Assembly (NCBI GenBank): GCA_027036135.1
Contig: JALVSY010000007.1
Location: forward strand, 868,880-932,879
Reading direction: 5' to 3'
Source of the DNA: Pyrodictiaceae archaeon
GTDB taxonomy: Archaea > Thermoproteota > Thermoprotei_A > Sulfolobales > Pyrodictiaceae
DNA: 64,000 nucleotides
The notes under the pieces were generated by a model. It made no database searches, was not told the origin of the DNA, and worked only from the letters and a program-made list of their open reading frames with translations. Shown here one piece after another: positions 3,957 to 52,851 of the stretch (the first letter of the stretch is position 1; each line of letters starts with the position of its first letter). The translations under genes and the position numbers were made by a program.

Positions 3957-4322
3957 GTGCCCTACGGCGTCTGCGTCTCAAAATGGGTCTCGGTAGCACT
4001 AAAGCTCTCCTCGCCCCATATACCAGGCGAGGCGCTTCATGGCCACGACTACCGGGTCAAGGTCTGTATTGAGGGCGAGCTAGGCGAGGACAACAAGGTT
4101 GTAGATCACTTAGAACTCCTGGTGCAACTAGATGATTGCCTTAAAGAGATAAATTATCGTTACCTCAACGAGGTCCTAGGGACGCAAAACCCTACAGCCG
4201 AGCTCCTTGCAAAGAGGATAGCCGAGTGTATATCGAGCAAGAATATCTTGAGAGGCAATAAGGTAGTACTTGTGGAGGCGTGCACTGCTTCCGAGCTATG
4301 CTCCTATTATAAGCCCCCGTAA
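3957..4322 (+). CDS. queD: 6-carboxy-tetrahydropterin synthase / PTPS family
   Basis: LHGHDY, YLNE and NPTAELLA motifs. Confidence 0.8.
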   Translation: MPYGVCVSKWVSVALKLSSPHIPGEALHGHDYRVKVCIEGELGEDNKVVDHLELLVQLDDCLKEINYRYLNEVLGTQNPTAELLAKRIAECISSKNILRGNKVVLVEACTASELCSYYKPP

Positions 4323-17436: not shown

Positions 17437-17516
<80 letters not shown>

Positions 17517-18017: not shown

Positions 18018-18040
18018 GCCTGTTAGCCTTGGCGGGGGTT

Positions 18041-18478: not shown

Positions 18479-18502
18479 GCCTGTTAGCCTTGGCGGAGGG
18501 TT

Positions 18503-18952
18503 ATGCCAGGGACGCAAGTAGTACAGACAAGGGATAAGACACCTGGGGCACAGGAAATGAGTACTAGCATCATGAGGGCAGTAGACAGCATACTAGACAT
18601 ACTAAGCAACGTGCCCCCGGCCTACAGGTTACAAGTACTCCGCATAGCCGAGAGCAAGATACGACCAAACATTGTAGGAAGTGGCGAGCTTGTAAGAAAG
18701 GTAAGCCGCAAAAGCCGTTCCTATGAACTAATTCTTCCGCTAGCCTATGCACACCTCGAGGGCACATACAAGCTTACACACATAGAAAGAAGACTCATCT
18801 ACGAAAGAAACGAGAACGGTGAAGTAAGAGCCCGAGTGAGAAGTTCGGCCCTACGTCTTCCTCTCCCAAAGTGGGCTTATGAGGCTATAGGTTCTCCTGC
18901 TTTTGTCCGTGTTCGTGTAGAGGATGATAGGATCATTATTGAGCCTGCTTAG
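18503..18952 (+). CDS. AbrB/SpoVT-like protein, copy 3
   Basis: Paralog; LPLPKWAYEAIG...VEDDRIIIEP. Confidence 0.7.
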   Translation: MPGTQVVQTRDKTPGAQEMSTSIMRAVDSILDILSNVPPAYRLQVLRIAESKIRPNIVGSGELVRKVSRKSRSYELILPLAYAHLEGTYKLTHIERRLIYERNENGEVRARVRSSALRLPLPKWAYEAIGSPAFVRVRVEDDRIIIEPA

Positions 18953-18961: not shown

Positions 18962-19615
18962 TTGGATCGTAGGCGCCTAGTTCTCACTGTTTTATTCTCC
19001 TTGGCTTTGTTCTCCCTATTGCCTCTGTCTATCTGGGTTATGAATAGCTTTGATTTCCCGTGGCTCTTTCTCGGCGTGTTCGGCCTGATCCCTGTTGGTT
19101 ATGCGTTGCTGTGGCCTTATAGGCTCGTGTTTCTGGCTATGCTGCTCGTGCTTGCTGGGAGCGGGCTACTCTACCGACACGGGGACCTCTTGTTTAGCCT
19201 TCTCTTCTTCTTGGTGCCCTACGGCGTGGCCTGCGTCGCCATAGCTTATCGTATTGCTGAGAGGCTTAGCCCCGTGGAGTGGGTGGAGCCCAGCTACCCC
19301 GAGGAGCATGAGGAGCCCGGGGGCTACGAGGAGTATAGCCTTGCAGATTCTAGGCCGAGGTGGAACCCCTACGCCGACTCGAGGCCCGTGCTGCTGCGCC
19401 GAGGCGGGTCCTCAAAGCCCGAGACGGGGGAGAAAGAGGAGGACCCGTGTGGCGGCGACCAGCTCATAGACCTGTTGCTGGAGAAGGATGCGGAGGACCC
19501 CGAGGTCGAGAAGAAGCTCAGAGAGTACATGGAGTGCAGAGCCAAGTGGTTCATAGAACACTTCCACGAGTGGGAGCAGAAGCATGGGGTCAGGGTTGGG
19601 AGGAGACATGCCTAG
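18962..19615 (+). CDS. Membrane protein with acidic cytoplasmic tail
   Basis: About 4 N-terminal TM segments. Confidence 0.65.
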   Translation: MDRRRLVLTVLFSLALFSLLPLSIWVMNSFDFPWLFLGVFGLIPVGYALLWPYRLVFLAMLLVLAGSGLLYRHGDLLFSLLFFLVPYGVACVAIAYRIAERLSPVEWVEPSYPEEHEEPGGYEEYSLADSRPRWNPYADSRPVLLRRGGSSKPETGEKEEDPCGGDQLIDLLLEKDAEDPEVEKKLREYMECRAKWFIEHFHEWEQKHGVRVGRRHA

Positions 19616-20330
19616 CGCCGTTGCAGTGACGCGATAGGCACCACCTATACATTTCATCGTCGCTGATTCCTTCCCCCTCTGTTGTCCATTTCGGTATTAG
19701 CTCTCTGAAGGTGTCATACCGTATCAAGACTATGAGTCTGTCGAGATTTCTGCGGCGGAGGCACTTGTAAAGAGAACAAAAGAGGTCGCGATCATCCGTA
19801 ACTACAGGAAAAGGCGGCCTGGTTATGCCCGCGCGGCTCGAGGCGGGAACTGCCGCGGCCACGTCGTAGGCCAGGAGAATACCCTCAACGACGGGAAGAT
19901 CCTTCCCTATGTTCTTACGGCACGCCTCCCTCGCAACGCAATGGAGTAGCCAGCCCCGGTGCCTCAGGGCGATTTGGCGGTTTGACCTCTCCTCAACGGC
20001 GCGGCGAATCCTCGCGTAAGCGGTTTCATCGGCGTCAACAGGGACTACTTGCTCTGTGCGCAGCATGTTCTCCAGCTCCTCACGGAGACGGTTAAGAATC
20101 TCTGAGGGCTCCATGTCCCAATGGGAGACTGCTCTCTTTGTCACAAGCTTAGGAAGCTTACGCTCGGCCTCCTTCACTATGTACTCCGTGACGAGGACCT
20201 GGAGGCGCCCTGACTCCAGGAGGAGTCGGAGCGGGGTGCCTTGGCCCCGGTGCCGAGCGGTCGCAATTGCGTAGAGGAGCCTTAGCAGGCTATTGGTGTC
20301 GGTGAACACGAGTGCATATTTCCGCACCAA
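19590..20330 (-). CDS. PIN-domain protein (putative toxin)
   Basis: VFTDTN, IVKE, KDLPV and VVTDDRDL acidic tetrad. Confidence 0.7.
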   Translation of the reverse strand: MVRKYALVFTDTNSLLRLLYAIATARHRGQGTPLRLLLESGRLQVLVTEYIVKEAERKLPKLVTKRAVSHWDMEPSEILNRLREELENMLRTEQVVPVDADETAYARIRRAVEERSNRQIALRHRGWLLHCVAREACRKNIGKDLPVVEGILLAYDVAAAVPASSRAGITRPPFPVVTDDRDLFCSLYKCLRRRNLDRLIVLIRYDTFRELIPKWTTEGEGISDDEMYRWCLSRHCNGARHVSSQP

Positions 20331-20334
20331 CGCG

Positions 20335-21036
20335 CTAGTCCTCCTCCTCGAGGTCCTCGAGGCTACCTACATCATAGTCTGGCTGGAGCCTTCCAGCCTC
20401 GTAGTCGCGGCGTATCCTGTCTAGCTCCCTCAGCAGCTCTATGTAGTCGTCGAGGCTCATGTTGAACACCATTGCCTTCTTTACTGGTGGCCCTTCGGTC
20501 TCGAGATGCAGCACCCTCAGCGAGAGCCTCTCCAGCTCACTGGTGCTCATAGAGCCTAAGCGTTCAACTACCCATTCGTTGAGCGTGTCGATGTATCCTT
20601 CGCCGTAGAGTGGCTCGAGCTTCTCAGCCAGTAGCTCTCGAAGCGCCTCGGCCAGGTCTCCGAGGGCCTCGCGGACTGGAGGCGTCGGCATTAGCTTCTT
20701 GTCAAGCACCGTGACGGCTCTCGCGTCACGTATGCCTAGAAGGCGTCGGCAGCTCTTATTCATAGCATTGACGAGTCTCTTCACCCTCATGTAGGGGCCG
20801 TGGAGGTAGATGCGGAACTCCATCTCGGGGCTGAGGCGCGGAGGGTTTGCACGGAGCACAGGTTTGCCATCTGGTCCAGGCTCCGTGTAGAGGGCGAAGA
20901 AGAGAAGTTTCACAAGCTTTTCATCGTCAACTATGCGTTCACCGTGCTGAGCTAGCCTCAAGAGTATGTAGAGTGCTAGCTCGGCTACAACTCTTTCGTG
21001 AAGCTCGGGCCTAAGAAGCTCTGCCACAAACTTCAC
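20335..21036 (-). CDS. Panacea/SocA (DUF4065)-like putative antitoxin
   Basis: KLVKLLFF...FRIYLHGPY resembles the DUF4065 KL-KL-Y...HGP motif. Confidence 0.6.
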   Translation of the reverse strand: MKFVAELLRPELHERVVAELALYILLRLAQHGERIVDDEKLVKLLFFALYTEPGPDGKPVLRANPPRLSPEMEFRIYLHGPYMRVKRLVNAMNKSCRRLLGIRDARAVTVLDKKLMPTPPVREALGDLAEALRELLAEKLEPLYGEGYIDTLNEWVVERLGSMSTSELERLSLRVLHLETEGPPVKKAMVFNMSLDDYIELLRELDRIRRDYEAGRLQPDYDVGSLEDLEEED

Positions 21037-21650: not shown

Positions 21651-21881
21651 GTGGATGACGTGGTGGTTGTGTTCTCGGACGAGGTGGCTGGGCGTAGCAG
21701 GGTGGTGACGTTTAAGGCCGAGGAGGAGCTGGTGGAGATGCTTGACAGGGTTGCTAGGAGCCAGGGCTTGTCGAGGAGCGAGGCGATAAGGGAGGCCATT
21801 AGGCTCTACCTGGGCCTCAAGGCCCGTGGAGCCACGGGGCCCGTGGAGCCGAGGCGCCTGGGGGCGCTGAGGCTGGGGTGA
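21651..21881 (+). CDS. CopG/RHH regulator
   Basis: VVTFK...MLDRVARSQGLSRSEAIREAI. Confidence 0.85.
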   Translation: MDDVVVVFSDEVAGRSRVVTFKAEEELVEMLDRVARSQGLSRSEAIREAIRLYLGLKARGATGPVEPRRLGALRLG

Positions 21882-21887: not shown

Positions 21888-22040
21888 ATGGATGAGGCGT
21901 GTGCCGCGGGGTGCCGTGAGAGGCATTGCCGTGGCTCCTTCTGCGAGGCGGGTTATTGGCGCTGCCTCCTGGGCTGCGCCAGTGCCGAGGAAGCTGCGCG
22001 GCTCGCCAGCCTCTACTACGCCCTAGGCCTTATAGGGTGA
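21888..22040 (+). CDS. 50-aa Cys-rich microprotein (not in ORF track)
   Basis: MDEACAAGCRERHCRGSFCEAGYWRCLLGCASAEEAARLASLYYALGLIG; GGGGTGA upstream; its stop overlaps the next start (GTGA). Confidence 0.6.
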   Translation: MDEACAAGCRERHCRGSFCEAGYWRCLLGCASAEEAARLASLYYALGLIG

Positions 22041-22696
22041 GGAGCGCATTGGCTGCGGGGATTAGGCGCGGCGAGAAATACGTTGTCCGTAAAGTGAACG
22101 GTAGGTGGCCAGCCAAGCATACTGCAGGCCTAGACCCCGCGCTTGTGGGCCCGAGGGCCTTCGAGCACCCCGCGGTAAGGGCTTGGTGGGAGTGGCTGAG
22201 AAAGGAGTACAGGCCACAATACCCAGTAGCCCTGATTACTCCATGTAGCAGTGTGAAGCCCTACACCCGGAGCCCCACGTCGCGGAAGATACGTGGGCTG
22301 CTACGCCGCCTCGGCCTATGGAGCGATGCCAGCAATCAGCCCATTGGGTTGGAGTGGCTATACCTCAGCGACCTCCTGCTCCTAGTCCCCTATGAGCGGG
22401 CCGAGGGGTACCCCGCCTGCTGCTACGAGGTACCGCCCGAGGTCGTGCTCTGCAGCCCAGCGCTGCGCAGCCTAGTGACCAGTCTCCTCGCCGAAGTTGT
22501 GGAGAGGCTCTACGAGCGCGGATTGAGACGCGTCGTACTCTTCCTCCCCAAGAAGCACCTACGGCTCTGGAACGGGGCCAGGAAACGCGCGGTGAAGTGG
22601 CCGAGCGAGACGGTGACTAAGTACAGTATCTTCCGCTTCGACGGGCTCCCCCAAGCCCTCTCTCAGCTCCAAGGAGCTTTACAGGAGCTCCTGTAG
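22037..22696 (+). CDS. DUF5591 / archaeosine synthase ArcS-like domain protein
   Basis: LITPCSSVKPYTRSPT and LVPYE...YP..CY match the ArcS-type PCS..KPY..S motif; start GTG at 22037. Confidence 0.75.
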   Translation: MRSALAAGIRRGEKYVVRKVNGRWPAKHTAGLDPALVGPRAFEHPAVRAWWEWLRKEYRPQYPVALITPCSSVKPYTRSPTSRKIRGLLRRLGLWSDASNQPIGLEWLYLSDLLLLVPYERAEGYPACCYEVPPEVVLCSPALRSLVTSLLAEVVERLYERGLRRVVLFLPKKHLRLWNGARKRAVKWPSETVTKYSIFRFDGLPQALSQLQGALQELL

Positions 22697-22712
22697 CGGG
22701 GGGCGAGGCACC

Positions 22713-23642
22713 ATGGCTAGTCTGCGCAGCATAGCTGCTGGCCTCGGTGTGCCTTACTCCACGGCGTACGTCACGTTGGAGAGGTTGCTGGGGCTTAGGC
22801 CTCGCCACATAACAGCCATTGATAATTCTGATGACCAGATTATCAATGGGGATTATGTGGTCGCCGTAATTAGGTCTGTGCTGCTCTTGGCGAGGAATAG
22901 GCTAGAGTACTACACCATGCCGCCGATACCATTGTGGCCGTGGCTGCTTGTCCCCGTTAAGTCTGTAGACGTGTTGGAGAGGTTCCTCGCGGACATGGAG
23001 AGGCTTGGGGCGAGGCCCTCTGCTGTTATCCTCGACGTGGGGATAATGGAGTGGTTCAACAGAAAGACAATGGAGTATACCGGGGAGTTCTGGAGGGCTT
23101 TCTGGCACGGCGTCGACGCGGTGAGAGGGCTTGCCCGTAGATACAGGTTTGCGTGGAGGATTGTTCTCCCCGATGTACCCGCCACTGTTGAGGACAACAT
23201 CTCCCTCACCATGAGGTTGCAGGAGAGGCTGCTGGCGGAGCACCCCGAGCTGCCGTGGATACCTGTCGCGCAGGCCTCGAGGACTACTAGCCACTCTAAT
23301 CACCTAGCGTGGCTGGTTGAGACCGGGGTCGTGGAGAAGTATGGCTGCGTGGCGCTAGGCTCGCTCAAAGTACTGGCTGGCAGGAGGAAGCAGCTATGGA
23401 GGGACGCTGTAGACGGGGCTAGGGCTCTGCTCCACGAGCACGGCCTAGGCAGTGTTAAGCTGCACCTCTTCGGCGCCCCGCTGGACGCCGCCGTCTCCTC
23501 GAGGCTGCCGCCCGGCTCATGGGACTCGAAGACCTGGACCTTTCCCAGGGTGCCGTACCTGTGGAGCGCGAAGGATGGCTCGATGCGCGTAGTCTACTTC
23601 ACAACGTTCCTCGAGAGGCTCGTAGAGCTGCTGGCGGGGTGA
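22713..23642 (+). CDS. HTH-fused TGT/DpdA-like transglycosylase
   Basis: ILDVG, LPDVP, IPVAQ, ALGS, LHLFG, WDSKTW occur in TGT barrel order; N-terminal LRSIAAGLGVPYSTAY HTH. Confidence 0.7.
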   Translation: MASLRSIAAGLGVPYSTAYVTLERLLGLRPRHITAIDNSDDQIINGDYVVAVIRSVLLLARNRLEYYTMPPIPLWPWLLVPVKSVDVLERFLADMERLGARPSAVILDVGIMEWFNRKTMEYTGEFWRAFWHGVDAVRGLARRYRFAWRIVLPDVPATVEDNISLTMRLQERLLAEHPELPWIPVAQASRTTSHSNHLAWLVETGVVEKYGCVALGSLKVLAGRRKQLWRDAVDGARALLHEHGLGSVKLHLFGAPLDAAVSSRLPPGSWDSKTWTFPRVPYLWSAKDGSMRVVYFTTFLERLVELLAG

Positions 23643-23651: not shown

Positions 23652-23852
23652 ATGATGGACCCCCTCCTCCTCGGCGCAGCGGGGCTCGCTGGCTTCGGGC
23701 TAGGCGTCGTCGCCGGAGGCTACGCCGTGGCTAAGAAGGCCCGGCTGCTCCGGAAGAGCCTCAGCGACTGCGAGCGGGCCGTTCACGAGCTCCAGAAGCT
23801 CCTCCGCTTCTACAGAGCTGTGCTCAACGACAACGGGGGCGGCAATGAATGA
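23652..23852 (+). CDS. Small TM + coiled-coil protein
   Basis: Gly-rich TM followed by a heptad region. Confidence 0.55.
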   Translation: MMDPLLLGAAGLAGFGLGVVAGGYAVAKKARLLRKSLSDCERAVHELQKLLRFYRAVLNDNGGGNE

Positions 23853-24085
23853 GGATAACTATGCGCCAAGGGCTCTACAGGGAAACTATCGCTGGCGCCG
23901 TATGGCTCCTGCTCAGGCTACGGGGCTGCATGCCCCCGGGGGAGATACTCGAGGAACTCCACCAACTAGGCCTCGACACCAGCCGCTCGACCCTGCACCG
24001 AGTGCTGCGGGAGTACACAGGGAGGCTCTTCGAGAGAACGAGGAACGCTGGCCGCATACTCTACTGCGCGATAAGAGAGGTGTAG
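23849..24085 (+). CDS. Small winged-helix protein
   Basis: EILEELHQLGLDTSRSTLHRVL...ILY; start overlaps previous stop (ATGA). Confidence 0.65.
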   Translation: MRITMRQGLYRETIAGAVWLLLRLRGCMPPGEILEELHQLGLDTSRSTLHRVLREYTGRLFERTRNAGRILYCAIREV

Positions 24086-24328: not shown

Positions 24329-24919
24329 GTGGTGAGCGTGGCGAGCCCGCGCTGGGCAGGGGAGAAGAGGAGCGCCGCGCTAGCAGCTGTTAACACTGTT
24401 CTCCCAGACATAGTTGGGCCCGCGAAGCGCATGGGGCTACTGGTTAGCGTTGAGTCCACCAAGGACCTGCGGGTCCACGTCGTCACAGTGGAGCTGCCTG
24501 GCTCCAAGCCCCTCATATTAGCACTCTACGCTACCACGGAGGAGTCTAGACCCATTACGTGGAGCAGGCTCGGGCCACGGCTAGAGAGGCTGGAGAAGCA
24601 CCGGGGGCGCTGGGCCCCGCCAGGCGGCGACACGCTCTACTTCGTGCTAGCCGCTTCCCCGAGGACACGTGTCACGGGCCCCGCGAGGAGGATGCTTGCC
24701 AGGAGAAAGGTGCTCTTCCTAACCCCGAGGAAGCTACGCCTCTGGTTCAACCGCTACTTCAACCGCCGCCTAGCAGGGCTAATAAAGAAGCTCAGAGCCA
24801 AGAAGGCCAAGGCGTACGACAAGCTCGCAGAGCTCCTCCGCGTCCTCTACCTCCTAGCCTCCAGGCTAGGACCAGTAACTATTAGCCTACACGAAGTCGA
24901 GGCCATGGTCCGCGCCTAG
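24329..24919 (+). CDS. Basic uncharacterised protein, candidate replication initiator; homolog of 58418-59077
   Basis: Last gene of a CopG-containing operon, followed by ~700 bp non-coding DNA; aligns by eye with the backbone ORF. Confidence 0.7.
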   Translation: MVSVASPRWAGEKRSAALAAVNTVLPDIVGPAKRMGLLVSVESTKDLRVHVVTVELPGSKPLILALYATTEESRPITWSRLGPRLERLEKHRGRWAPPGGDTLYFVLAASPRTRVTGPARRMLARRKVLFLTPRKLRLWFNRYFNRRLAGLIKKLRAKKAKAYDKLAELLRVLYLLASRLGPVTISLHEVEAMVRA

Positions 24920-27385: not shown

Positions 27386-30300
27386 TTGGGCTTGGCTCGG
27401 AGGGATGTTGAGAAGAGCCGTGTTCTCGGGGGCACCCATTATGTTGGCTGGGTTCGTCTAAGGCCACGCCTCGGCTATGAGAAGGAGTTTGCGCAGCTCG
27501 TGGCTATGAGCCCACATGTTGTGCTGGAGGCTCATCGGCTCGGGGACAGGCTCGAGTTCTATGCATGGATACGCGACATTGCGTTGCCGCTGCTTAGGCG
27601 CAGGGCTAGCGTGGAGCCCGTCGAGGAGCCTCCGCCTCTCACGCAGAAGTGGGTAGCCGAGCTACGGGCTCCGAGCGATGCCTGGGAGACTGGGGTCGAG
27701 GTCAGTGAGGCCTGGCTATCGGTATATGACTGGCTCTTGCCAGGTGAGGCGGTGCAGATTGTAGGGTTCTACGATATGAGGACGCACCGGGAACTCGCCA
27801 AGAAGGCTAGGCATTATAGGCTAGGCGAGAAACCGGAGCTGAAGGGGCTGGGGCCCCTCGAGTACCACAAGAAGGACCCGGATAGGGCAAGGCATCTCTC
27901 CCAGCTAAGCACTAAGAGGATCTACATAACAGCTGTCAGGTTCTACGCCGATGACAAGAAGCGTGTCAAGGAGCTCGGGGAGAGGGCTGCGGGCTTCTTC
28001 ACTCCGGCCCTCAGGGCTAGGGTGTCGAGGAGAGGGAACCTGGCCAAGCTGCGGGACCCCATGAGTCTCATGGGCAGGTTTCACCCCAGGAAAGAGTACC
28101 CCTGGATACCCCAGGATAGCTTCATGAACCTTGTGCGCCTCCCGCGGCCCGACGAGGTATCGGCCCGCCTCGACTTCGCCCGGGGCGCCGCCCTACCCCA
28201 GGTAGCTCCGAGGCCCCGGGGGCTGTGTATCAGGCTGGGGGAGCTGGAGAACGGCGAAGAGTACTGCCTGCCCCTCGAGGAGCTCCAGCGTCACGCATGG
28301 GTGATAGGCCAGACTGGCTCCGGCAAGTCCACGTTTCTCTGGAATCTCTCCCTAAGGCTGCTCGAGAAGGGCCGGGGAGCCGTAGTCGTCATCGACCCTC
28401 ACGGCGACCTCGCCTTCGACGTCCTCGAGTCGGCTCCACGGCTTGACCGCGTCTACCTTCTCGACCCTATGCGGAAACCCTTCGGCCTCAATCCTCTCGA
28501 CCTTCCTCGGCTCCCTGACCGGGGCCAGGCCGTGGCCCTCGCTGTGGACCACCTGATCACGATCTTCGAGAAGGTGCTGCGGTTGCCCGAGACGGCTGTG
28601 AATGTTCGCTACCTGTTACAGGTGCTCCTAAGATACATGTACGAGAGGATGGATTCCCCGACGCTGGGCGACGTCTATGCAGCGATAGTGGCGCTGTATC
28701 ATGGGCAGCTCGACCTACCTGTCGAGGACCCGGAGTGGCGGGTACAGGTTGAGGCACTGCAGCGGCTCCAGGATCAGACGTTCTTAAGTGCCCTCTCGAG
28801 GCTCGAGCCCTTCGCCAACCACCCCATACTTAGGAGGATAACCTCCCGGACCACGGTGCCTCTCGAGGAGGTGTTGCGGCCTGGTAGCCTGGTGCTGATT
28901 CGGCTCCCTAAGGGCGAGCTGGGCGAGTCCGTGCTCCGGCTCCTCGCGCCAGCCATAGTGCTCCGCCTATGGTTTTACGCCCTGGAGCGCGCGGCCCGCG
29001 GCGAGGAGAGGGCCCCGATCTATGTCGTCATAGACGAGTTCCAGAACCTCGCTGGGCTCCCCGTCGTGGAGACCATTCTCTCGGAGGCCCGTAAATACGG
29101 CCTCCACCTCGTCATGGCTCACCAGCATACCAAGCAGTTGCCCGAGGAGCTGCTCCAGAGCGTATTCAGCAACACTGGTGTCAAGGTGGTGTTCAGGGTG
29201 GGGGGCCAGGACCTCGAGAAGCTGAAGCAGCTAGACCCCGAGTTCGCCCAGGAGCTCGGCAAGGTTCTCGCAAGCCTCACTACTGGCCGCGCAGTGGTGA
29301 AGCGCTCTGGGCTCCCCGGCGAGGAGCCGCCGCCCCCAGCGCTGGTGAAGACCGATCCACCGCCGCGTAGACGGCTCAGCAACATAGGTGTAGTCGACAA
29401 GCTGCCCAGCTTCGCACCGCCCCCCGAGGAGCCCGGGGTCGATATAGTTGCTAGGCTGAACCCGGTGCTTCGTTATCTCCCAAGGGATAGGCTTGACCCG
29501 GTTGAGGCCTGGGTCTTGTTCCACGTCTATGAGGCGACGGAGGGTGGTTCCCGGGAGGAGCTGTGGAGTAATGTCTTGGTTCGGCTGGGGCTGCCGCGTA
29601 GCCGTGCCGATGAGGCCCGGAACAGTCTCGCGTCTAGGGGGTTGATCGAGGCGCGTAGGGAGGGGAACCGGTGGCTTGTTCGCTACGTGCGGGGGCTCTT
29701 TGAGGGTCTCCGCCAGGTTGCCCCGAGCGATGAGGGCTATGGTCTTGCTAGGCGTGCTCTGCTCTACTACTTCTCGAGGGGCTACGTGGTGTACCCTGCG
29801 AGGCAGGATCCTGGTTTGCCGGCGAGGCCGGATCTCGTGGCTATACCCTTTGACCCCTCCGGCATGAGCCTGAGGTACGATAGGGCGGTTGCGGTTGAGG
29901 TTGAGTCTTGTAACGAGCTCGGGACTCACCCTGAGCAAGTGATCCGGAACCTCCTCAAGCACTCCGGGGACGTGTTCGCGGAGGTCCACTTGTGGGCGCC
30001 GCTGGGCTGCAGGGGGAGGCTCGTGGAGATCCTCGCAAGGGTGGAGGGCAGGCTGCCGCTGCCGGTCAGGGTGATGCCGGAGGAGGAGCGCTCCGAGGCT
30101 GGCCATGGCGGCGGGCGCGCCGAGGCCGCCGGCATCGCTGGTGGTGCCGCTTCGCCTGCCCCCGCGGCTGCTGGTGGTGTTGCTGATGTCGGTGCTGGCG
30201 TGGCTGGCGGCGTCGAGGAGGAGGCTGTCGAGGGGGAGGCGCCGGGGGAGCAGCGCGTCGAGGGCGCTGGCGTCGGGGAGAAGCCCGTGGATGGGCAGCC

Positions 30301-30799
30301 TAGGGCTGGTGGGGAGCCTGGGGATCCCGGGCTGAGGCGGCTCTTGGAGGCCCAGGCCGAGCTGCTCGCGGCGATGGGCAAGGCCCAGGCGGAGATCCTC
30401 CAGGCCCAGAGGACCAGCCAGGAGAAGCTCAACAGGCTACTAGAGCTCCAGGAGCGCCAGACCCGGCTCCTAGAGCAGATGATAACCCTCCTAGAGCAGC
30501 TAGCCCGGAACAGACGGCACCGGGAAAGCACGCACGGAGAGATCACAGAGCCAGAGGAACCACCCAGAGACACGGAGACACCAGCAGGGACACCGGGGGA
30601 AGCCGGGAAGCCAGAGCAGCCAGACGGGCAGACATGCATCCCGGTAGAGCTAGACGAGCCCCCAGGCCAAACGGCCTGCCTACCGCCACAGGTGGCCCGG
30701 CTAGCAAACCAGTACCGCAAACAAGGCTACAAGCTAACCCAAACCCCAACCGGCAGAATATACGCAACCCGCAGAAACCGCCGAATCCCCCTATACTAG
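27386..30799 (+). CDS. VirD4/TraG-like coupling ATPase with C-terminal wHTH, PD-(D/E)XK-like domain and coiled coil
   Basis: HAWVIGQTGSGKS, IDPHGD, IDEFQN, EARKYG, AHQ; RPDLVA...AVEVES. Confidence 0.85.
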   Translation: MGLARRDVEKSRVLGGTHYVGWVRLRPRLGYEKEFAQLVAMSPHVVLEAHRLGDRLEFYAWIRDIALPLLRRRASVEPVEEPPPLTQKWVAELRAPSDAWETGVEVSEAWLSVYDWLLPGEAVQIVGFYDMRTHRELAKKARHYRLGEKPELKGLGPLEYHKKDPDRARHLSQLSTKRIYITAVRFYADDKKRVKELGERAAGFFTPALRARVSRRGNLAKLRDPMSLMGRFHPRKEYPWIPQDSFMNLVRLPRPDEVSARLDFARGAALPQVAPRPRGLCIRLGELENGEEYCLPLEELQRHAWVIGQTGSGKSTFLWNLSLRLLEKGRGAVVVIDPHGDLAFDVLESAPRLDRVYLLDPMRKPFGLNPLDLPRLPDRGQAVALAVDHLITIFEKVLRLPETAVNVRYLLQVLLRYMYERMDSPTLGDVYAAIVALYHGQLDLPVEDPEWRVQVEALQRLQDQTFLSALSRLEPFANHPILRRITSRTTVPLEEVLRPGSLVLIRLPKGELGESVLRLLAPAIVLRLWFYALERAARGEERAPIYVVIDEFQNLAGLPVVETILSEARKYGLHLVMAHQHTKQLPEELLQSVFSNTGVKVVFRVGGQDLEKLKQLDPEFAQELGKVLASLTTGRAVVKRSGLPGEEPPPPALVKTDPPPRRRLSNIGVVDKLPSFAPPPEEPGVDIVARLNPVLRYLPRDRLDPVEAWVLFHVYEATEGGSREELWSNVLVRLGLPRSRADEARNSLASRGLIEARREGNRWLVRYVRGLFEGLRQVAPSDEGYGLARRALLYYFSRGYVVYPARQDPGLPARPDLVAIPFDPSGMSLRYDRAVAVEVESCNELGTHPEQVIRNLLKHSGDVFAEVHLWAPLGCRGRLVEILARVEGRLPLPVRVMPEEERSEAGHGGGRAEAAGIAGGAASPAPAAAGGVADVGAGVAGGVEEEAVEGEAPGEQRVEGAGVGEKPVDGQPRAGGEPGDPGLRRLLEAQAELLAAMGKAQAEILQAQRTSQEKLNRLLELQERQTRLLEQMITLLEQLARNRRHRESTHGEITEPEEPPRDTETPAGTPGEAGKPEQPDGQTCIPVELDEPPGQTACLPPQVARLANQYRKQGYKLTQTPTGRIYATRRNRRIPLY

Positions 30800-41893: not shown

Positions 41894-43798
41894 TTACCAC
41901 TCTCCGGGCCTCGTCGAGAACACCCTCAGCTCCTCTGGCGTGGGCTGCACGTAGATGCGTAGACGCCAGCCACCAGCGACCCTGAGTATTCCCTGGCCAG
42001 GCTCGGCGTCGAGGAGCTGCTCCTCCTCCGCCTCGCTTAGATTATAGATGGGCTTAACCGCCTCCAGCGATGCCTCGTTCAGGCGTAGTAGAAGCACGGT
42101 GGCCGACTGCTCTAGGATTGTCCTGCCATGCTCGCTTCTCAGCACGTCGTGGGGCCTCTGGGTCGCGAACACGAAGTTAACGCCTTTCTTGCGACCCCTC
42201 CTCGCTATGTCGGCGAACATCAACATCAATGAGGGGTACTGGGCGAACATCCATCCCTCGTCTACTACTAGCAAGGAGTTGCGGAGCTGGGAGGAGACTA
42301 CGAGCGCTAGTAGTGCTCCTACCAGAGCCCTGGCGCGGCGGGACCTGATGCCGGCGAGCGCGTAGACAGCGCCCCTCCCTGTGGGGAGCGGGGGCTCTCC
42401 ACGGTATATCCACGAGTCGGCCTCGGCTGCTTTCAGGTAGTTCTCGAGCCCCGTGGCTCTCTCCTCGGCGAGCCTAGCTGCCTCCTCTAGGCTCTCGGAC
42501 TCGCCTAGAACGTCTACTAGCTCGCCTCGTAGCTCGTCGGGGACGCGGTAGTACTCCTGCACAATGTCCACGGCCTCGTCGAGCCCTATTACCCCCCTCC
42601 TCCACAGCCTGACAGGGTCCAGGCCTAGGCCTCCACGTTCCCCAGCAGCGTCCTTGCTTAGCTCGTAGCCCGCGAGGCCGGTAGCCAAGTACTCCCTAAT
42701 ACCAATGTACTCGGACTCAGGGTCTATGATTATGGTCTTCTGGCCCAGGCCAGCAGCCCACCACCTCCTCACATACACTTTCAGCGTCATGCTCTTACCT
42801 GAACCAGTCTCCCCCAGTACCACCACGTTGTAATTCGGCCTAGCATAGGGGTTGAAGACAACGGGCTCCCCGGTATCCAGGTCGTAGCCGAGATAGAGGC
42901 CGCCAAAGTCGACCAGCTGCTCCTGCACCAGAGGATACAATGCCTGCGCGCTCAGAGTATCGACATAATGGAATACCGGCACCGTCCACTCAAGATTATA
43001 TAATCGTCTCTGGTAGAACCCCGGGCCACTAGCATATTCTACCATCCTCGAGGCTAGGAGCTCCTCGAGGCGCCTGCTGCGCTCCCAGAGCTCCTCCTGG
43101 CTAGAACCCCTAACTACCAACACTATCGCTATCTTCACGAGCCGGGCCTTGCCTCCTAGGAGCTGTTGTAGCTGCTGGAGCTTGTATGCCTCCTGCTCTA
43201 GCTGCCAGGTCGTGGAGCCACGGAGCACTGATTGTAGCCTGAGAAGCCTCTGGTCAATCATCCTCCTCGCTTTAGCGGGCTCCACGGGCTCTATGAGGAA
43301 GTGTATCTCATCGGTAGCATAGATTAGCTCGAGGGGCCACGCCTCGGGCAGGCTGTCGGGCAGCTTGACAACAGTATACGCCCTAGCGTAACCGCCATCC
43401 TCTAGCTCGAGGATGCCGCGGGCTACGCGCCTCACTACAGGCCTGTAAGGCTCCGCTGCTGGCCTTGGCTCGTAGCCGAGCTGCATTAACAAGCCATAAT
43501 CCAGGCCCTCGGCGAAGAATAGGAGCCGGCGAAACTTGAAGCCCTCGATGCTGTCCCATGCTGCATAAATCGAGATACGAGCCTTATCATTGGCAGCGTT
43601 CAATAACGCGGTCCACTTAGATAGGAATCTGTCGCGCTCCTTCTCGGGGAGAGCCGCGAAGGGGTAGCCCTGGACCTGTAAAAGGAGGCTGAGCTCACTG
43701 CTTCTTGGGGCTCTCTTCCTCGCTCTTTGTTTCTCCCTCTGCCCCTGGCTTTGCTTCGACTTTGATAGGCTGGGCACGCTTCTCCCCGCTATAGACAC
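41894..43798 (-). CDS. VirB4/TrbE-like conjugation ATPase
   Basis: NYNVVVLGETGSGKS, IDPESEY, VVDEGW, RRGRK, ATQ. Confidence 0.9.
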   Translation of the reverse strand: MSIAGRSVPSLSKSKQSQGQREKQRARKRAPRSSELSLLLQVQGYPFAALPEKERDRFLSKWTALLNAANDKARISIYAAWDSIEGFKFRRLLFFAEGLDYGLLMQLGYEPRPAAEPYRPVVRRVARGILELEDGGYARAYTVVKLPDSLPEAWPLELIYATDEIHFLIEPVEPAKARRMIDQRLLRLQSVLRGSTTWQLEQEAYKLQQLQQLLGGKARLVKIAIVLVVRGSSQEELWERSRRLEELLASRMVEYASGPGFYQRRLYNLEWTVPVFHYVDTLSAQALYPLVQEQLVDFGGLYLGYDLDTGEPVVFNPYARPNYNVVVLGETGSGKSMTLKVYVRRWWAAGLGQKTIIIDPESEYIGIREYLATGLAGYELSKDAAGERGGLGLDPVRLWRRGVIGLDEAVDIVQEYYRVPDELRGELVDVLGESESLEEAARLAEERATGLENYLKAAEADSWIYRGEPPLPTGRGAVYALAGIRSRRARALVGALLALVVSSQLRNSLLVVDEGWMFAQYPSLMLMFADIARRGRKKGVNFVFATQRPHDVLRSEHGRTILEQSATVLLLRLNEASLEAVKPIYNLSEAEEEQLLDAEPGQGILRVAGGWRLRIYVQPTPEELRVFSTRPGEW

Positions 43799-46167: not shown

Positions 46168-48135
46168 CTAGAAGACGTTGAGCAACATTATTGTCGCCAG
46201 CGTGGAGAGCACGGCAGCCAAGGGCCACAACGTGTCCCTCACCGTCAGGCTTATCGCCTTGGCGGCGAGGAAGCCCATCACCGCGGCAGCTATGAGCGCT
46301 AGCCAGGCTATGAACCCGGCGACGTTGCCGGAGAGCGTGAGCGGCAACGACTCGAGCACCTGCGTCGTCGAGCCCATGATTCGCTGCAGCCCAGCAGCCA
46401 TCACCGCCACTATCGGGGGGAACCCGATGGCGAGGAAGCCCAGCAGCCTAAGCCTCATACTAGCAGCCCTGTGTGCACTGACGTGCGCGTATACGAGGTC
46501 ATAGAGCCGCTCGAGTGCCAGAGGGTCGCTGGCCCCCTGCGAGCCAACGATGTTGACTACCGTGTACAGGGTGTACTTTGCTAGCCAGGAGCGTGCCCTA
46601 ATACCGCCTGACCTGGCCGCCGCCCTCGCAGCAGCTGCCAGGGGCTCCTCTACGCTGCCAACGGCGTGCTCCAGTAGCTGGGATACAGGCTTATCGGACA
46701 TGCTCCTCGTGTACTCTATCACCATTCTTAGTAGTGGCAGTAGCTCCCGCTCCTCTTTGCTCACTAGGCGCTTCTGTGCTCTGAAGGCCACGCCGTAGAC
46801 GCCTAGCCCGGCTGCAGCCGAGAACCCAGCGGACATTATCGCTGGTAGCCCGAGGACCGTGCATAGGAGGGCGGCTGCGCTTGCAGCCACCACGGCGGCT
46901 ATGACTGCCTCGGCGTCCCTGTATTTCTCCCTGAGCCGGGGCTGGCTACCAGCGAGTAAGGAGTAGCCTAGGGGCGCAGCCAGGATTATTGCTAGGGCTG
47001 CTAACCCAGCGCCCCTACCGCCGAGGAATGCCGAGAACATGACAAATATCAGGGTGGTCGCCAATAAGCCCATCAAGCCAGTGCCGAGGGCTACTCCGTT
47101 CTCCGCGTACGCGGCTATCCTGGCCCTTAGCTCGTCGGTCTCAGCGCGCAAGGTGTCGCTGAGAAAAGCTGCCACGTCGCCGCCGCTATCTCTTATCGCC
47201 AAGTAGTAGGCGTAGAACCTGCGCAGCCTACGGCTAGGATGCTTGTTAGCGAGTTCCTCGGGGCTCTTACCAGCATCAGCACCTATGGCTGGTAATAGTT
47301 TACTCTTACGGGCCTCTTCGAGCGCATCCTCGAGAGAACCTGTACCCGAGCGCTCCATGAGCCAGGCCCACAGGCTGAGATATGGGAGCTCCTCCTCCGC
47401 CGCCCTCGCTCTTTCCCTAGCTTTTGCCTCGAGGTGTGCTCTTAGGAGTGGCAGGGATAGAGGCGGCAATAGCGCTGATAGTAGTAGCGCCTTGCTCCCA
47501 GCAAGCACCGCCAGGCCAGCCAGCACAGCGGACGCGGCTAGACTACCTAGTAATATTATAGATACTAGTGCTGCGGTCTCGAACCTAGTCCACCTATAGC
47601 CAGCCTTCTCAACCGCCTCGGGGACCCCGAGCCGAGCTGCAACCCTATCCCCGAGGGGTATGGCGCCTAGGACCACGGGTACAACGTATCTTAGTACTCC
47701 TCGGGGCTCTTCGGGTCTCTCTCTGAGCCCCTTCCTAAGCATGTAGAGCATCCACGCGCCGGGGATTATCGGCAGTGCACCTATCAGCGCTAGTACTGGG
47801 TTCCTCTCTAGCTGGAGCGTGGACGAGACAACCCCCAGCACCATCATGGCTATAGAGGCTAGGAGTACTAGTCTCCTAGAGGGATAGAGCGCCAAGCGGT
47901 AGAGAAAACCAGTTGCCAGGTCTAGGGCAAATAACGCGAAGAGGAAAACACCTAGGCCGAGCACAGTGGGCGTGACACGGACCTCAGGCTCCGCTAGGCC
48001 CAGCAGCGTTCTCCACGGAACCATCCCGAGGATTATTAGGAGCGTTGACGCTATCGCCACCGCTAACTGGTAGCCCGTTATTATCCTCCTTGCCTTCTGC
48101 GTCTTTGCCTGAGCCGCCTCCATTACCCTCCCCAC
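46168..48135 (-). CDS. Type IV pilus membrane platform (TadC/ArlJ-like)
   Basis: Duplicated TM+cytoplasmic EEELP / ERELL modules; adjacent to the secretion ATPase. Confidence 0.75.
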   Translation of the reverse strand: MGRVMEAAQAKTQKARRIITGYQLAVAIASTLLIILGMVPWRTLLGLAEPEVRVTPTVLGLGVFLFALFALDLATGFLYRLALYPSRRLVLLASIAMMVLGVVSSTLQLERNPVLALIGALPIIPGAWMLYMLRKGLRERPEEPRGVLRYVVPVVLGAIPLGDRVAARLGVPEAVEKAGYRWTRFETAALVSIILLGSLAASAVLAGLAVLAGSKALLLSALLPPLSLPLLRAHLEAKARERARAAEEELPYLSLWAWLMERSGTGSLEDALEEARKSKLLPAIGADAGKSPEELANKHPSRRLRRFYAYYLAIRDSGGDVAAFLSDTLRAETDELRARIAAYAENGVALGTGLMGLLATTLIFVMFSAFLGGRGAGLAALAIILAAPLGYSLLAGSQPRLREKYRDAEAVIAAVVAASAAALLCTVLGLPAIMSAGFSAAAGLGVYGVAFRAQKRLVSKEERELLPLLRMVIEYTRSMSDKPVSQLLEHAVGSVEEPLAAAARAAARSGGIRARSWLAKYTLYTVVNIVGSQGASDPLALERLYDLVYAHVSAHRAASMRLRLLGFLAIGFPPIVAVMAAGLQRIMGSTTQVLESLPLTLSGNVAGFIAWLALIAAAVMGFLAAKAISLTVRDTLWPLAAVLSTLATIMLLNVF

Positions 48136-49609
48136 TATGTCTGCCTGCCTGGGAGAAGGAGACGCGCCGAGGCTCGGCCACCTTTACGAGTTCGTCTCTC
48201 TCGGGGTCGTAGCGGTAGAGGAGGCGTTCGCCACCGCTCGGCAGAACCTCATAGATGGCCACGACCCTGCGAACGGTTCTCTCGCCCAGCCTTACCTTGT
48301 CGAGGACAACAACAGACCAGAGAAGTACCAGCATATCCTCCCTTACGCCTAGCTTCAATAGTCTCAGCTTCAGCTCCTCCCAGTCCCGGGCATGGAACGT
48401 AGCAGCGCTAGCCTCCCCGAGCGCTGCTACCTCGAAGAGGTCCAGTATCTCTGGTCCACGGGCCTCCGTTATCGCTGTGAATTGTCCCCGGAGCCTCAGC
48501 GCGACCCGTATGAGGTCCTGGTACGTTACCTCGGTCTGCCTACTCGCGGCGAGGCTCCTCGCCCTCCTCACTCTCAGGCTTATGAAGCGTGGATGCCTCG
48601 GCCTAAGCTCCGGGACATCCTCTATGGCTACGAGCTTCCAGTCACCGGGGAGCTTCTCCATCAAGGCGTTTAGCAGCGTGGTCTTGCCCGTGCCCTGGGG
48701 GCCTATAATGAACACCATTCCGCGGCTCAGCAGCACTCTCAGCAAGTACTCGGCTGCCTCCCCGCTCAGCATCTTATCCGCTACCAGGTCCTCGAGGCTC
48801 AGCGGCTTCTCTGGGTGCTTCCTAACCGATAGACTCGTGGCACTAGCTATCGTGCCGAGAACCATTGTGACGCGGTGACCGTTCAGCTCCGCCTCGGCGA
48901 TAGGGAATGCTGGAGATATAGCTGTCCCAGCGGCGGAGGCCAAGCGCTGCAGGTATTCCCGGAACTCATACTCGGGGGGCGCAACTATGCTGGTAGGGAT
49001 GTACTCTCTTCCCGGCATCTTCCTGTGAATAATATCTACGGGTCTCCCGGCCACAGCACTTATCTCCTCAACATCCGGGTCGAGTACTAGCGGATAGAGG
49101 AACCCCCAGGGCGAGAGAGACTTCTCCACGTAGTAGCGGAAGGCCTCTGGCTGCCGCTGCATAATCTCCGAGACACCCAGCTTCTCTGCAGCCTCGCCAG
49201 CCTTCTCTGGCGGGAGACCGTGCTTCTCCAAGTACTCTATGACTATGCGGAGCGCCTTCTCGGCGTCAGGGTCTAAGCGGGGCTCTACGACCTCGTACCT
49301 ATCCTCGCCCACTACTATGGTCAGCACGCCGACGCCGTACTCGAGGACCCGGTGCTCGCTAATACTCCCCGCCTGGTCCTTGTCTCCCTCGCCGAACTGT
49401 CCCCCAGACTCTGCAGCTCCAGCACCCTCCCCACCCGCCTCAGGCTCCTCGGAAGCCCCATGGATTCTCTGAGCCTCTTCATCCTCGAGCAGGTCAAGCA
49501 ACAGATCCTCTTCTATCCCACGATGCTCTGTCTCCTCCTCGCCGCTCGGCTCCTTCACCAGCTCCTCGGGTATCTCCTCCCCGTTATCCCCCGCCATGGG
49601 CTCCATCAC
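47984..49609 (-). CDS. Type II/IV secretion ATPase (TadA/ArlI/VirB11 family)
   Basis: DPDVEEI, SVRK, GPQGTGKTT, IEDVPEL, EARGPE, TFHA. Confidence 0.92.
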   Translation of the reverse strand: MMEPMAGDNGEEIPEELVKEPSGEEETEHRGIEEDLLLDLLEDEEAQRIHGASEEPEAGGEGAGAAESGGQFGEGDKDQAGSISEHRVLEYGVGVLTIVVGEDRYEVVEPRLDPDAEKALRIVIEYLEKHGLPPEKAGEAAEKLGVSEIMQRQPEAFRYYVEKSLSPWGFLYPLVLDPDVEEISAVAGRPVDIIHRKMPGREYIPTSIVAPPEYEFREYLQRLASAAGTAISPAFPIAEAELNGHRVTMVLGTIASATSLSVRKHPEKPLSLEDLVADKMLSGEAAEYLLRVLLSRGMVFIIGPQGTGKTTLLNALMEKLPGDWKLVAIEDVPELRPRHPRFISLRVRRARSLAASRQTEVTYQDLIRVALRLRGQFTAITEARGPEILDLFEVAALGEASAATFHARDWEELKLRLLKLGVREDMLVLLWSVVVLDKVRLGERTVRRVVAIYEVLPSGGERLLYRYDPERDELVKVAEPRRVSFSQAGRHSGEGNGGGSGKDAEGKEDNNGLPVSGGDSVNAPNNPRDGSVENAAGPSGA

Positions 49610-51919: not shown

Positions 51920-52795
51920 ATGAGAGCCAAGAGCCAAGCAATAACTATTAGGGAAGTTGACTGGAGAAGTTTCGCTATATACCTCGAGGGGCTTGGGCTC
52001 TCGAGGAAGTGGAGGGAGGATCTGCTAAGGTACGCTAGGCGCTATGGATGGCTCGTGTACGAGGACCATGTTAGGCTCCGTGTGGAGCTGAGGAGATTAA
52101 GCCCCCATATGCGCAACAAGGTGATGAATGCACTATCGCACTTAGCGAGGTTCCTTGAAGAGCACGGCGAGGAGGGGCTCTACGAGGAGCTGAGGAAACG
52201 GTTCCGGAGAGCACGGCTAGCATGGAGCAAGGGGCGGCCCCGGCTACGGGTTCTCGCTAGCCTCGAGGACATGCTAGAGCCTGTAACTCATGCAGCGTCT
52301 ATGCTCAAGCCAAGGCACTATAGGGTGTTCGCGGCGTTCCTCTTAGCCACTGGGCTCCGGCCCGAGGAGGCTGCAAAAGCGTGGCGAAGCTACTGGCGCG
52401 TGAGGATGCGCTACCGGGACATGGTGCTACTGGACCTAGAGGCAGTAGGACTCGACAGAGACACTAAGAGAGCCATAGTAGCCATGGTTCACCCGCTTGC
52501 GGACGCTGAGGTGCCGGAGAAGCCCAGGATAAGCCTAGCATTACTCCGGAGGAAGTGGAACAAGGCCGCAGAAGAAGCTGCCGGGAAGAGAATAGAGCTT
52601 TACACCATGAGACGGCTCCATGCAACACTCTTACTACACGCCGGGGTACCGGAGCACATAGTGGACCTGCTACAAGGCCGCCCAGGCTCCACAATCCTGC
52701 GACAAAACTACATCATGTACACGCTCTACGAGTACTGGCACAGCTACATCAAAGCCCTCCAGAACCCCCTCTCAATAATTCTAGGCAAAGACTAG
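51920..52795 (+). CDS. Tyrosine integrase, pNOB8-type (unsplit)
   Basis: TGLRPEE, TKR, YTMRR, LLQGR, QNY; ends 4 bp before attR. Confidence 0.93.
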   Translation: MRAKSQAITIREVDWRSFAIYLEGLGLSRKWREDLLRYARRYGWLVYEDHVRLRVELRRLSPHMRNKVMNALSHLARFLEEHGEEGLYEELRKRFRRARLAWSKGRPRLRVLASLEDMLEPVTHAASMLKPRHYRVFAAFLLATGLRPEEAAKAWRSYWRVRMRYRDMVLLDLEAVGLDRDTKRAIVAMVHPLADAEVPEKPRISLALLRRKWNKAAEEAAGKRIELYTMRRLHATLLLHAGVPEHIVDLLQGRPGSTILRQNYIMYTLYEYWHSYIKALQNPLSIILGKD

Positions 52796-52799: not shown

Positions 52800-52851
52800 C
52801 GGGCTGTTAACCCGGTGGTCGGTGGTTCGAATCCACCCGGCGGCGCCACAC
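52800..52851 (+). repeat. attR (3' part of tRNA-Asn)
   Basis: Identical to 17465-17516. Confidence 0.95.

Follow-up and report, generated by a model that had tools for sequence, protein, structure and literature searches.

Two adjacent genes on a 35-kb integrated element of a Pyrodictiaceae archaeon probably form a module that modifies the DNA of this element with 7-deazaguanine bases. The pair lies in a stretch of 64,000 nt from contig JALVSY010000007.1 of assembly GCA_027036135.1 (positions 868,880 to 932,879, forward strand). This whole stretch is referred to as the window, and coordinates are those of the window unless another source is named. Gene 1 (22037..22696, + strand) encodes a stand-alone protein of the ArcS-C1/DUF5591 type, which is ArcS2-like, and gene 2 (22713..23642, + strand) encodes a DpdA-like protein with a tRNA-guanine transglycosylase (TGT) fold, which carries a putative helix-turn-helix (HTH) and has neither a zinc site nor a PUA domain. 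In the reading that we favor, with a probability of about 0.62 based on sequence comparisons and structure models, preQ0 would be exchanged into the element DNA, where the ArcS2-like enzyme would complete the modification. The support directly in hand comprises the family and fold assignments, the conserved residues, the adjacency of the two genes, their mobile context, and the preQ0 capacity of the host. The pair is a variant of the DpdA plus ArcS2 kind known from STSV2 and Vibrio phage nt-1, and the gene 2 subfamily appears to be new.

Layout of the gene pair

An earlier annotation of this DNA (the sequence-only reading) had placed a TGT/DpdA-like and ArcS-like gene pair at 22037-23642, and two same-strand open reading frames (ORFs) were found exactly there. 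The frame of gene 1 is open from 21926 and ends with the stop at 22696. A candidate start, GTG at 22037, overlaps the stop of an upstream 50-aa ORF (GTGA) and gives a protein of 219 aa; the alternative, TTG at 22049, is where the closest homolog (91% identical, 215 aa) begins, and it would shorten gene 1 to 215 aa. Gene 2 starts with ATG at 22713, 16 nt 3' of the end of gene 1, and encodes 309 aa.

Gene 1: an ArcS core domain that stands alone

Gene 1 is confirmed as a stand-alone DUF5591/ArcS-C1 protein, that is, the C1 domain of ArcS without the Nt, C2, or PUA domains. It matches Pfam DUF5591 with 27.1 bits (cut-off 26; E 4.2e-6) over residues 84-210 of the long ORF, and NCBIfam gives partial matches only, to two 'archaeosine synthase subunit alpha' models (E 2e-5 and 5e-5). 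The match in PHROGs is phrog_34505, a family of unknown function (E 8e-14). When gene 1 was compared by tblastn with 50,697 phage records, six records were matched, five of them from the Sulfolobus spindle viruses STSV1, STSV2, and STSV4; in a pairwise BLASTP, gene 1 and STSV2_16 are 31% identical over 154 residues (E 3e-21). The AlphaFold model (AF2, 19 sequences) reaches a predicted local distance difference test score (pLDDT) of 85.9. It matches AF0587 (PDB 2q07) both in Foldseek (E 1e-6) and in VIA-align (Z 13.3, root-mean-square deviation (rmsd) 2.8, 138 residues aligned), and the next fold matches in VIA-align are uracil-DNA-glycosylase folds with Z of at most 7.3. The family profile also matches 2q07 by sequence, across the PC..KPY motif. 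The string PCSSVKPYTRS, on which the ArcS assignment had first been based, is present, and in an alignment of 19 sequences P69, C70, K74, P75, Y76, S79, and a PACCY block are invariant; the end of the motif is considered below.

Gene 2: a TGT-fold protein closest to DpdA

The six TGT-barrel motifs previously noticed in gene 2 are all present in the order described: LDVG (D108, G110), PD (153-154), PVAQ (184-187), LGS (215-217), HLFG (251-254), and DSKTW (271-275). Across 19 family members, with identities down to 22%, D154, N162, T166, Q187, H251, F253, G254, and D271 are invariant, D108 is conserved in at least 90%, and G216-S217 are conserved. The close homologs (64-86% identity), which among the 14 matches listed come from Pyrodictium delaneyi, P. 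abyssi, and metagenomes only, share 100+ invariant columns and keep all catalytic residues. This conserved motif set is not due to chance, because the family aligns to DpdA-annotated proteins with an hhalign probability of 99.1% and five TGT-superfamily structures head the fold search.

A single-sequence phmmer search with gene 2 against 1.84 billion representatives returned 16 proteins. Ten distant matches were scanned against Pfam; three of them gave DpdA PF23859 (E 8.6e-12, 4.2e-4, and 8.2e-3, only the first over the cut-off) and two gave weak matches to Pfam TGT. A profile search added eight further proteins of roughly 390-560 aa that are annotated as PF23859, seven of which were aligned; the three that were re-scanned match Pfam DpdA with E from 4e-11 to 4e-14. 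In hhalign, the gene 2 family without P0024 (19 sequences) aligns to these seven proteins at 99.1% (E 5e-19), and the Pyrodictiaceae clade alone still does so at 97.1% (E 7e-11). The value for the gene 2 family against the host TgtA is 81.7% (E 1e-5). The aligned motif pairs are LDVG/IDSG, PD, PVAQ/PVIQG, ALGS/IGIGS, HLFG, and SWDS/SFDS, and the conserved positions of gene 2 align to DSG, PD/LD, QG, GS, HLFG, and FDS of both the DpdA-annotated proteins and the host TgtA. PHROGs contributes phrog_887, 'queuine tRNA-ribosyltransferase' (E 1.1e-3), and a lead from Protein Atlas (rank 2, score 0.83) is a cluster with Pfam DpdA on 17% of its members.

The AlphaFold model of gene 2 (AF2, 11 sequences) has a pLDDT of 76.5, with low values at residues 33-37, 69-74, and 271-284. 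An exhaustive VIA-align search was needed to reveal the TGT signal. In this search, TGT-superfamily entries fill the top five positions: DpdA (7ui4) comes first with Z 12.1 (rmsd 3.3, 173 aligned), followed by bacterial TGT (3unt, Z 10.6), ArcTGT (1iq8, Z 10.5), QTRT2 (6fv5, Z 9.8), and Cap10 in the Cap10-CdnD complex (9ntn, Z 9.3), while unrelated TIM barrels reach at most 8.9. Profile searches and a TGT-fold match had been proposed as the check on the gene 2 assignment; the curated models are silent, yet the TGT superfamily supplies the best fold matches. The family assignments of the sequence-only reading therefore stand for both genes, gene 1 as ArcS-C1/DUF5591 and gene 2 as a TGT-fold protein closest to DpdA.

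In DpdA and TGT, Asp95, Asp130, and Asp256 are reported as invariant, with Asp256 as the nucleophile (PMC10164549). We read D108, D154, and D271 of gene 2 as the counterparts of these three residues of bacterial DpdA (bDpdA), on the basis of the alignment with DpdA/TGT motifs and the published roles of the Asp residues rather than of a superposition. Gene 2 lacks the Zn-binding CxCxxC..H and the PUA domain, as had been recognized earlier, and also the C1 and C2 domains, since it holds a single, non-conserved Cys and the sequence ends about 35 residues past the barrel. It does not match TIGR00432 (TgtA), for which the host TgtA scores 575 bits. The N-terminal HTH that had also been proposed is plausible but weak: the helices at residues 4-11 and 15-26 of the model fit it, and the profile support is thin, with TrmB HTH as the only Pfam match of gene 2 (E 0.19) and with HTH_5 (E 4.7e-4), MerR, and HTH_28 (both about 0.06) in relatives, all below their cut-offs. 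The HTH head is absent from about half of the family.

Two other identities were considered for these proteins. DpdA4 (DUF6610) is described as an archaeal-virus subfamily (PMC10516641). Gene 2 does not match PF20314, and its family shows no detectable relationship to the DpdA4 of halovirus HVTV-1, gene 69 (HVTV1_69; hhalign 0.07%, E 0.68). A split ArcS, with the pair supplying the Nt and C1 parts, is not favored, because gene 2 misses the ArcS models while another TGT-like protein of the host matches them. A prediction of a complex between the products of gene 1 and gene 2 scored 0.00 in two runs made with no control complexes alongside, a result that carries no weight on binding either way.

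Distribution and linkage

Of 201 genomes examined from the order, 6 have a relative of gene 2 (4 among the 153 high-quality ones), and such a sporadic pattern is as expected of mobile cargo. In all three close loci (the window, P. delaneyi, and P. abyssi), a DUF5591 gene is adjacent to the gene 2 homolog or within about 0.6 kb of it; in the two Pyrodictium species it lies about 0.3-0.6 kb upstream, and synteny of their loci with the window extends from the AbrB-like genes through the TraG-like gene.

With narrower gene 2-family alignments, one viral locus and seven genome loci were found, and one of these alignments (A6) gave no locus in viral contigs. When gene 2 itself was compared by tblastn with the 50,697 phage records, the one match had E 5 and was shown to be real only by profile comparison: it is ORF12 of Methanobacterium virus PhiF1, annotated 'hypothetical', a full-length relative of gene 2 (hhalign 99.8%, E 3e-29, 215 columns) without the HTH head. 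PhiF1 also encodes a stand-alone DUF5591 protein, ORF75 (51.7 bits), annotated 'putative archaeosine tRNA-guanine transglycosylase'. Like the window, PhiF1 thus combines the two families, and it provides a second, phylogenetically remote co-occurrence, although its genes are not adjacent (11.1-11.8 kb and 72.4-72.9 kb of a 74 kb linear record). Beside ORF12 are ORF10, with a PAPS-reductase domain, and ORF9, a cytosine-5 DNA methyltransferase (9765-10427 and 8483-9679 of the record), and near ORF75 is a Dam-like methyltransferase; together they make up a cluster of DNA-modification functions.

The gene 2 family, including PhiF1 ORF12, appears from these comparisons to be a new DpdA-like subfamily that is missed by curated models. 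No mention of PhiF1 was found in the main text of PMC10516641. The literature search found no description of the subfamily or of an archaeal system borne on a plasmid or an integrative and conjugative element (ICE); the supplementary lists of PMC10516641 and PMC6884629, which may include PhiF1 relatives, were outside its scope.

Probable supply of preQ0 by the host

The element encodes no homologs of QueC, QueD, QueE, TgtA, or the host radical-SAM protein in tblastn searches with the host proteins, the only match being gene 1, and the same searches found no QueC, QueE, or radical-SAM homologs anywhere in the window. In the host genome, TgtA (575 bits) and QueC are encoded, as are QueD and QueE side by side and one more member of the QueD family; these preQ0 genes match the named families best while scoring below the NCBIfam equivalog cut-offs. 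A dependence of the element on its host for preQ0 is thus supported by gene content. The sequence-only reading had proposed the use of host preQ0 and cited a QueD-family gene at 3957..4322 (+ strand), outside the element. The first part agrees with the absence of preQ0 genes from the element and their presence in the host. Of the two PTPS/QueD-family genes, the one cited is the weaker (46.9 bits with NCBIfam QueD, cut-off 89; 46.3 bits with Pfam PTPS, cut-off 22.4), and the QueE-adjacent one is located about 178 kb away on the same contig.

Outside the window, the host genome also contains a second TGT-like gene (C7:3164-4273). Its 369-aa product has CxCxxC and every catalytic motif; it matches Pfam TGT with 54.6 bits and the TgtA and ArcS models in part. 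Of the 29 genomes of the family, only 7, this one included, have a clear ortholog (E < 1e-90), and the gene adjoins genes of the CARF/Csx1, Cas_APE2256, and HerA-like kinds. The product may be ArcS-Nt-like, or else a further enzyme that acts on DNA.

Comparison with known systems

The closest parallel in layout is STSV2 (also STSV1 and STSV4), where, as in the window, a TGT-fold gene is adjacent to a stand-alone DUF5591 gene in a crenarchaeal mobile genome without preQ0 synthesis genes. STSV2 is reported to have just DpdA and an ArcS limited to the core domain, for which the name ArcS2 was introduced, and dCDG amounts to 0.04% of G in the viral DNA (PMC10516641). STSV2_15, the DpdA, is missed by Pfam TGT and DpdA in the same way as gene 2. 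The two systems differ in that the STSV2 genes come in the opposite order and are carried by a virus rather than a conjugative-type integrated element, and in that gene 2 has an HTH head. STSV2_16 keeps the final His of the ArcS motif, whereas gene 1 does not.

The only such pair with a functional test is that of Vibrio phage nt-1. In E. coli plasmids, nt-1 DpdA2 alone gives dPreQ0 and DpdA2 plus ArcS2 gives dG+, the reported modification levels being low; the motif of the active nt-1 ArcS2 is described as 'slightly degenerated' as well, which resembles gene 1 (PMC10516641). However, nt-1 is a phage of bacteria, unlike the archaeal element, and the two pairs are likened by description, not by sequence. 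The DpdA of phage 9g is likewise reported to insert dPreQ0 on its own, and such modifications protect against restriction (PMC6884629).

The bacterial Dpd system (DpdA/DpdB/DpdC, Salmonella Montevideo, 7ui4) provides the best fold match of gene 2 and the same three active-site Asp residues. It differs in that bDpdA needs the ATPase DpdB, and that DpdC (ADG) and the restriction genes DpdD-K come after it; Pfam and PADLOC detected no counterpart of any of these in the element. The archaeal tRNA pathway (ArcTGT/TgtA, ArcS, and RaSEA) uses the same chemistry and folds; gene 1 is a paralog of the stand-alone C1 protein of the host family, and the motifs ALGS and HLFGA occur in both gene 2 and the host TgtA. 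It differs from the pair in that gene 2 lacks the Zn site and the C1, C2, and PUA domains, gene 1 lacks PUA, and the two genes are mobile and sporadic.

Origin of gene 1

Stand-alone DUF5591 proteins related to gene 1 are numerous (94 found, many of them from Pyrodictiaceae), and the host chromosome carries one that is 55% identical to gene 1. A quick maximum-likelihood tree was built from 95 rows, and the seven copies taken as linked to a gene 2 homolog sit in one clade of 15 (SH-aLRT 95); this linkage was read from the loci for three of the seven and assumed for four, whose longest contigs are identical in length to those of gene 2 homologs. The clade of 15 is nested among cellular DUF5591 copies, far from STSV2_16, which is on a very long branch. 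For this reason the tree, which is rooted on a long outgroup and hence weakly, suggests that gene 1 was recruited from the host lineage's own stand-alone ArcS core.

At C7:263159-264748 of its own genome, the chromosomal DUF5591 gene of the host adjoins a radical-SAM gene with HhH motifs, and homologs of the two lie within about 3.2 kb of each other in four of five other Pyrodictiaceae genomes. The best model for the radical-SAM gene is TIGR03916 ('DNA modification/repair radical SAM, linked to UDG'), at about 170 bits against a cut-off of 343.5. Among 14 control genomes, TIGR03916 was matched only in Caulobacter and Bacteroides. The identity of this gene as a RaSEA counterpart is not supported, because TIGR03916 missed the three control archaea with DUF5591. 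The DUF5591 fold is itself like that of uracil-DNA glycosylase (Z 7.3), and it is conceivable both that the host pair is the crenarchaeal equivalent of ArcS/RaSEA and that it acts on DNA.

Proposed mechanism

As its fold, profile homology, and conserved catalytic residues suggest, the product of gene 2 would be a DpdA-like transglycosylase with an N-terminal HTH. It would remove guanine from double-stranded DNA through a covalent Asp intermediate, with D271 as the predicted nucleophile, D108 as the acid/base, and D154 reading the base, and the base inserted would be preQ0 from the host QueC/QueD/QueE pathway. The product of gene 1, by homology to ArcS and ArcS2, would then act on the nitrile of the DNA-bound preQ0 and give either 2'-deoxyarchaeosine directly or a lysine adduct for a host radical-SAM enzyme to resolve. 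ArcS is reported to accept preQ0 nucleoside 5'-phosphate, and so it needs no tRNA shape (PMC11298593). By analogy with phages, the modification may serve to shield the element DNA from restriction on entry to a new cell.

A bolder version, which we regard as a long shot, is that the element DNA carries a stable, lysine-adducted 7-deazaguanine, a base not yet described, placed at specific sites by the HTH of gene 2. It may be considered because ArcS has been reported to make a preQ0-lysine intermediate that is resolved only by its radical-SAM partner, and the element encodes none. Since 7-deaza purines are known for their stability, one may speculate that, in an organism whose habitat is near 100 °C, such a base might harden sites against depurination.

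Weighing the alternatives

Several observations weigh against DNA modification by the pair. The present data fit a DNA and an RNA substrate alike, and the nearest cellular relatives of gene 1 are chromosomal genes that probably serve tRNA. The published ArcS signature is PC-x3-KPY-x2-S-x2-H (PMC10516641). The motif of gene 1 ends in Ser, and none of the 19 aligned relatives, the host chromosomal copy included, has His at the final position, so the motif noted at the outset is there while its last residue is not that of the signature. Gene 2 has no match at E <= 1 to Pfam TGT, DpdA PF23859, DUF6610 PF20314, NCBIfam DpdA NF041059, TgtA, or PADLOC, and sequence searches of the PDB (phmmer with gene 2, and two family profiles) returned no TGT or DpdA; the match of one profile, to a designed protein only, was judged spurious. 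The model of gene 2 is of medium confidence only, with pLDDT below 50 in the segment around D271, and in a Foldseek search of the PDB nothing matched at E <= 1e-3, generic TIM barrels being listed first and QTRT1 at rank 29. In VIA-align, DpdA is ahead of TGT and ArcTGT by only about 1.5 Z, and the similarity of the gene 2 family to STSV2_15 is marginal (hhalign 47%, E 1.9e-4). Finally, 13 distinct loci have a gene 2 relative and only three of them a DUF5591 gene, as detected with a narrow hidden Markov model of the gene 1 family; seven of the other ten loci are on contigs of at most 6.5 kb and three on contigs of 12-17 kb.

It is conceivable, though in our view unlikely, that the pair acts on RNA, as a stripped-down ArcTGT/ArcS set that modifies transcripts or tRNA of the host or the element, for example by boosting or altering archaeosine. 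The nesting of gene 1 among cellular stand-alone DUF5591 proteins of the same archaeal family, the alignment of the gene 2 profile to the host TgtA, and the positions of ArcTGT and TGT within 1.6 Z of DpdA are all consistent with this. The profile of gene 2 is nevertheless nearer to DpdA-annotated proteins (99.1%) than to TgtA (81.7%), and gene 2 has an HTH-like head, no match to TgtA, and none of the Zn, C1/C2, and PUA parts used for tRNA. In addition, gene 2 is sporadic and mobile, and the host already has the tRNA pathway with a full TgtA, which speaks for modification of DNA. A quite unlikely alternative on DNA is that the pair is the modification half of a Dpd-like system of self/non-self defense, in which a partner on the element attacks unmarked DNA. 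Bacterial DpdA does act within a restriction-modification island (PMC10164549), and divergent genes, one with a weak PIN-like match, are located just upstream of the module (19590-21036). However, PADLOC gave nothing for either gene, no nuclease or helicase partner is conserved beside the relatives of gene 2, and beyond the Pyrodictium clade only a ribbon-helix-helix (RHH) protein and small or unknown proteins are shared as neighbors. The same enzymes on their own are described as anti-restriction in phages (PMC6884629).

The Cap10-CdnD complex among the top five folds of gene 2, together with the HTH-like head and the position of gene 2 within a conserved string of small, regulatory-looking genes, raises the idea that gene 2 transfers 7-deazaguanine to something other than a nucleic acid (a protein, as does Cap10 in type IV CBASS) or that it serves as an HTH regulator whose degenerate barrel senses a ligand. 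We consider this very unlikely: the element has no QueC-like partner or CD-NTase and no PADLOC match, the HTH head is missing from about half of the family, and all catalytic positions of nucleic-acid TGTs are kept down to 22% identity, which a mere sensor would not need. Decaying or inactive cargo is highly improbable as an explanation. The silence of curated models on gene 2, the incomplete ArcS motif, and the very small size of the gene 2 family would fit decay, but both frames are intact, the relatives of gene 2 remain 64-86% identical with their 100+ invariant columns and every catalytic residue, and the module is syntenic across three species. The attachment repeats of the element (described below) are, moreover, identical over 52 nt and therefore suggest a recent or active element.

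Significance

7-Deazaguanine modification of DNA has been documented in phages, in a small number of archaeal viruses, and in Dpd islands of bacteria (PMC10516641, PMC6884629, PMC10164549). If the module is active, integrated elements of the conjugative type in hyperthermophilic archaea would join the carriers of this chemistry. A DpdA-like subfamily missed by curated models, with about 16 representatives among 1.84 billion proteins and including the unannotated PhiF1 gene, would be added, as would a tailoring enzyme seemingly recruited from the stand-alone ArcS core of the host lineage and not from viruses. The pair would also offer a two-gene test case for questions raised by STSV2, namely the product of ArcS2 on DNA and the need for a radical-SAM partner. 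Should the lysine adduct be real, it would be the first plasmid- or ICE-borne, non-viral 7-deazaguanine mark on DNA in archaea.

The integrated element and its other genes

The element spans about 35.3 kb, and its GC content (about 0.57-0.64) exceeds that of the flanking host DNA (0.45-0.49). It is bounded by an exact 52-nt direct repeat: attL (17465..17516) coincides with the 3' part of tRNA-Asn GTT (17438-17513), and attR (52800..52851), 100% identical, is located 35,335 nt downstream. The integrase gene (51920..52795, + strand; Pfam Phage_integr_3, archaeal phage integrase, E 2.7e-7, 31.1 bits, cut-off 27) ends 5 nt before attR. A protein of 1137 aa (27386..30799, + strand) resembles coupling-protein ATPases of the TraG/VirD4 type (Pfam DUF87/HerA 6.6e-13, TrwB_AAD_bind 7.8e-11, TraG-D_C 3.9e-9, and T4SS-DNA_transf 6e-7). 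On the opposite strand are a VirB4/HerA-type ATPase (41894..43798, −; Pfam AAA_10 3.3e-10, DUF87 4.4e-7) and a T2SSE/VirB11-type secretion ATPase (47984..49609, −; Pfam T2SSE 4e-20), whose neighbor at 46168-48135 matches Pfam T2SSF below the cut-off (1.4e-4). Judged by these features, namely att sites at tRNA-Asn, the integrase, and the TraG/VirD4- and VirB4-type ATPases, the element is of the integrated, conjugative type, and the sequence-only reading, which had placed the pair on a conjugative element, is borne out by them and by the T2SSE-type ATPase.

In the gene string around the pair, three neighbors are shared more widely, each in four loci. Upstream on the same strand is a CopG-type RHH protein (21651..21881, +; Pfam RHH_1 E 2.9e-11), with homologs in the P. 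delaneyi, P. abyssi, and Pyrodictiaceae metagenome-assembled genome loci. After gene 2 come a 78-aa protein (23849..24085, +) and a 196-aa protein (24329..24919, +), both conserved in the window, L015, L016, and L037; the latter, without a Pfam match, is possibly the Rep candidate of the earlier annotation. The two divergent genes just upstream of the module (19590-21036, −) encode 246 and 233 aa; one has the weak match to PIN_12 (E 0.006), and no homologs of them were seen in the related loci. Directly after attL, at 17487-18952, are three tandem paralogous genes of about 150-176 aa with a repeat spacing of 461-477 nt; they have no Pfam match, and the elements of P. delaneyi and P. abyssi each contain one homolog. 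A TnpB insertion is also present inside the element: a TnpB/OrfB_IS605-type gene (31605-32759) and two further ORFs lie between 60-nt direct repeats at 31529-31588 and 34104-34163, which are 93% identical to each other. The segment 31529-34163, where the GC content dips, has probably been inserted into the element.

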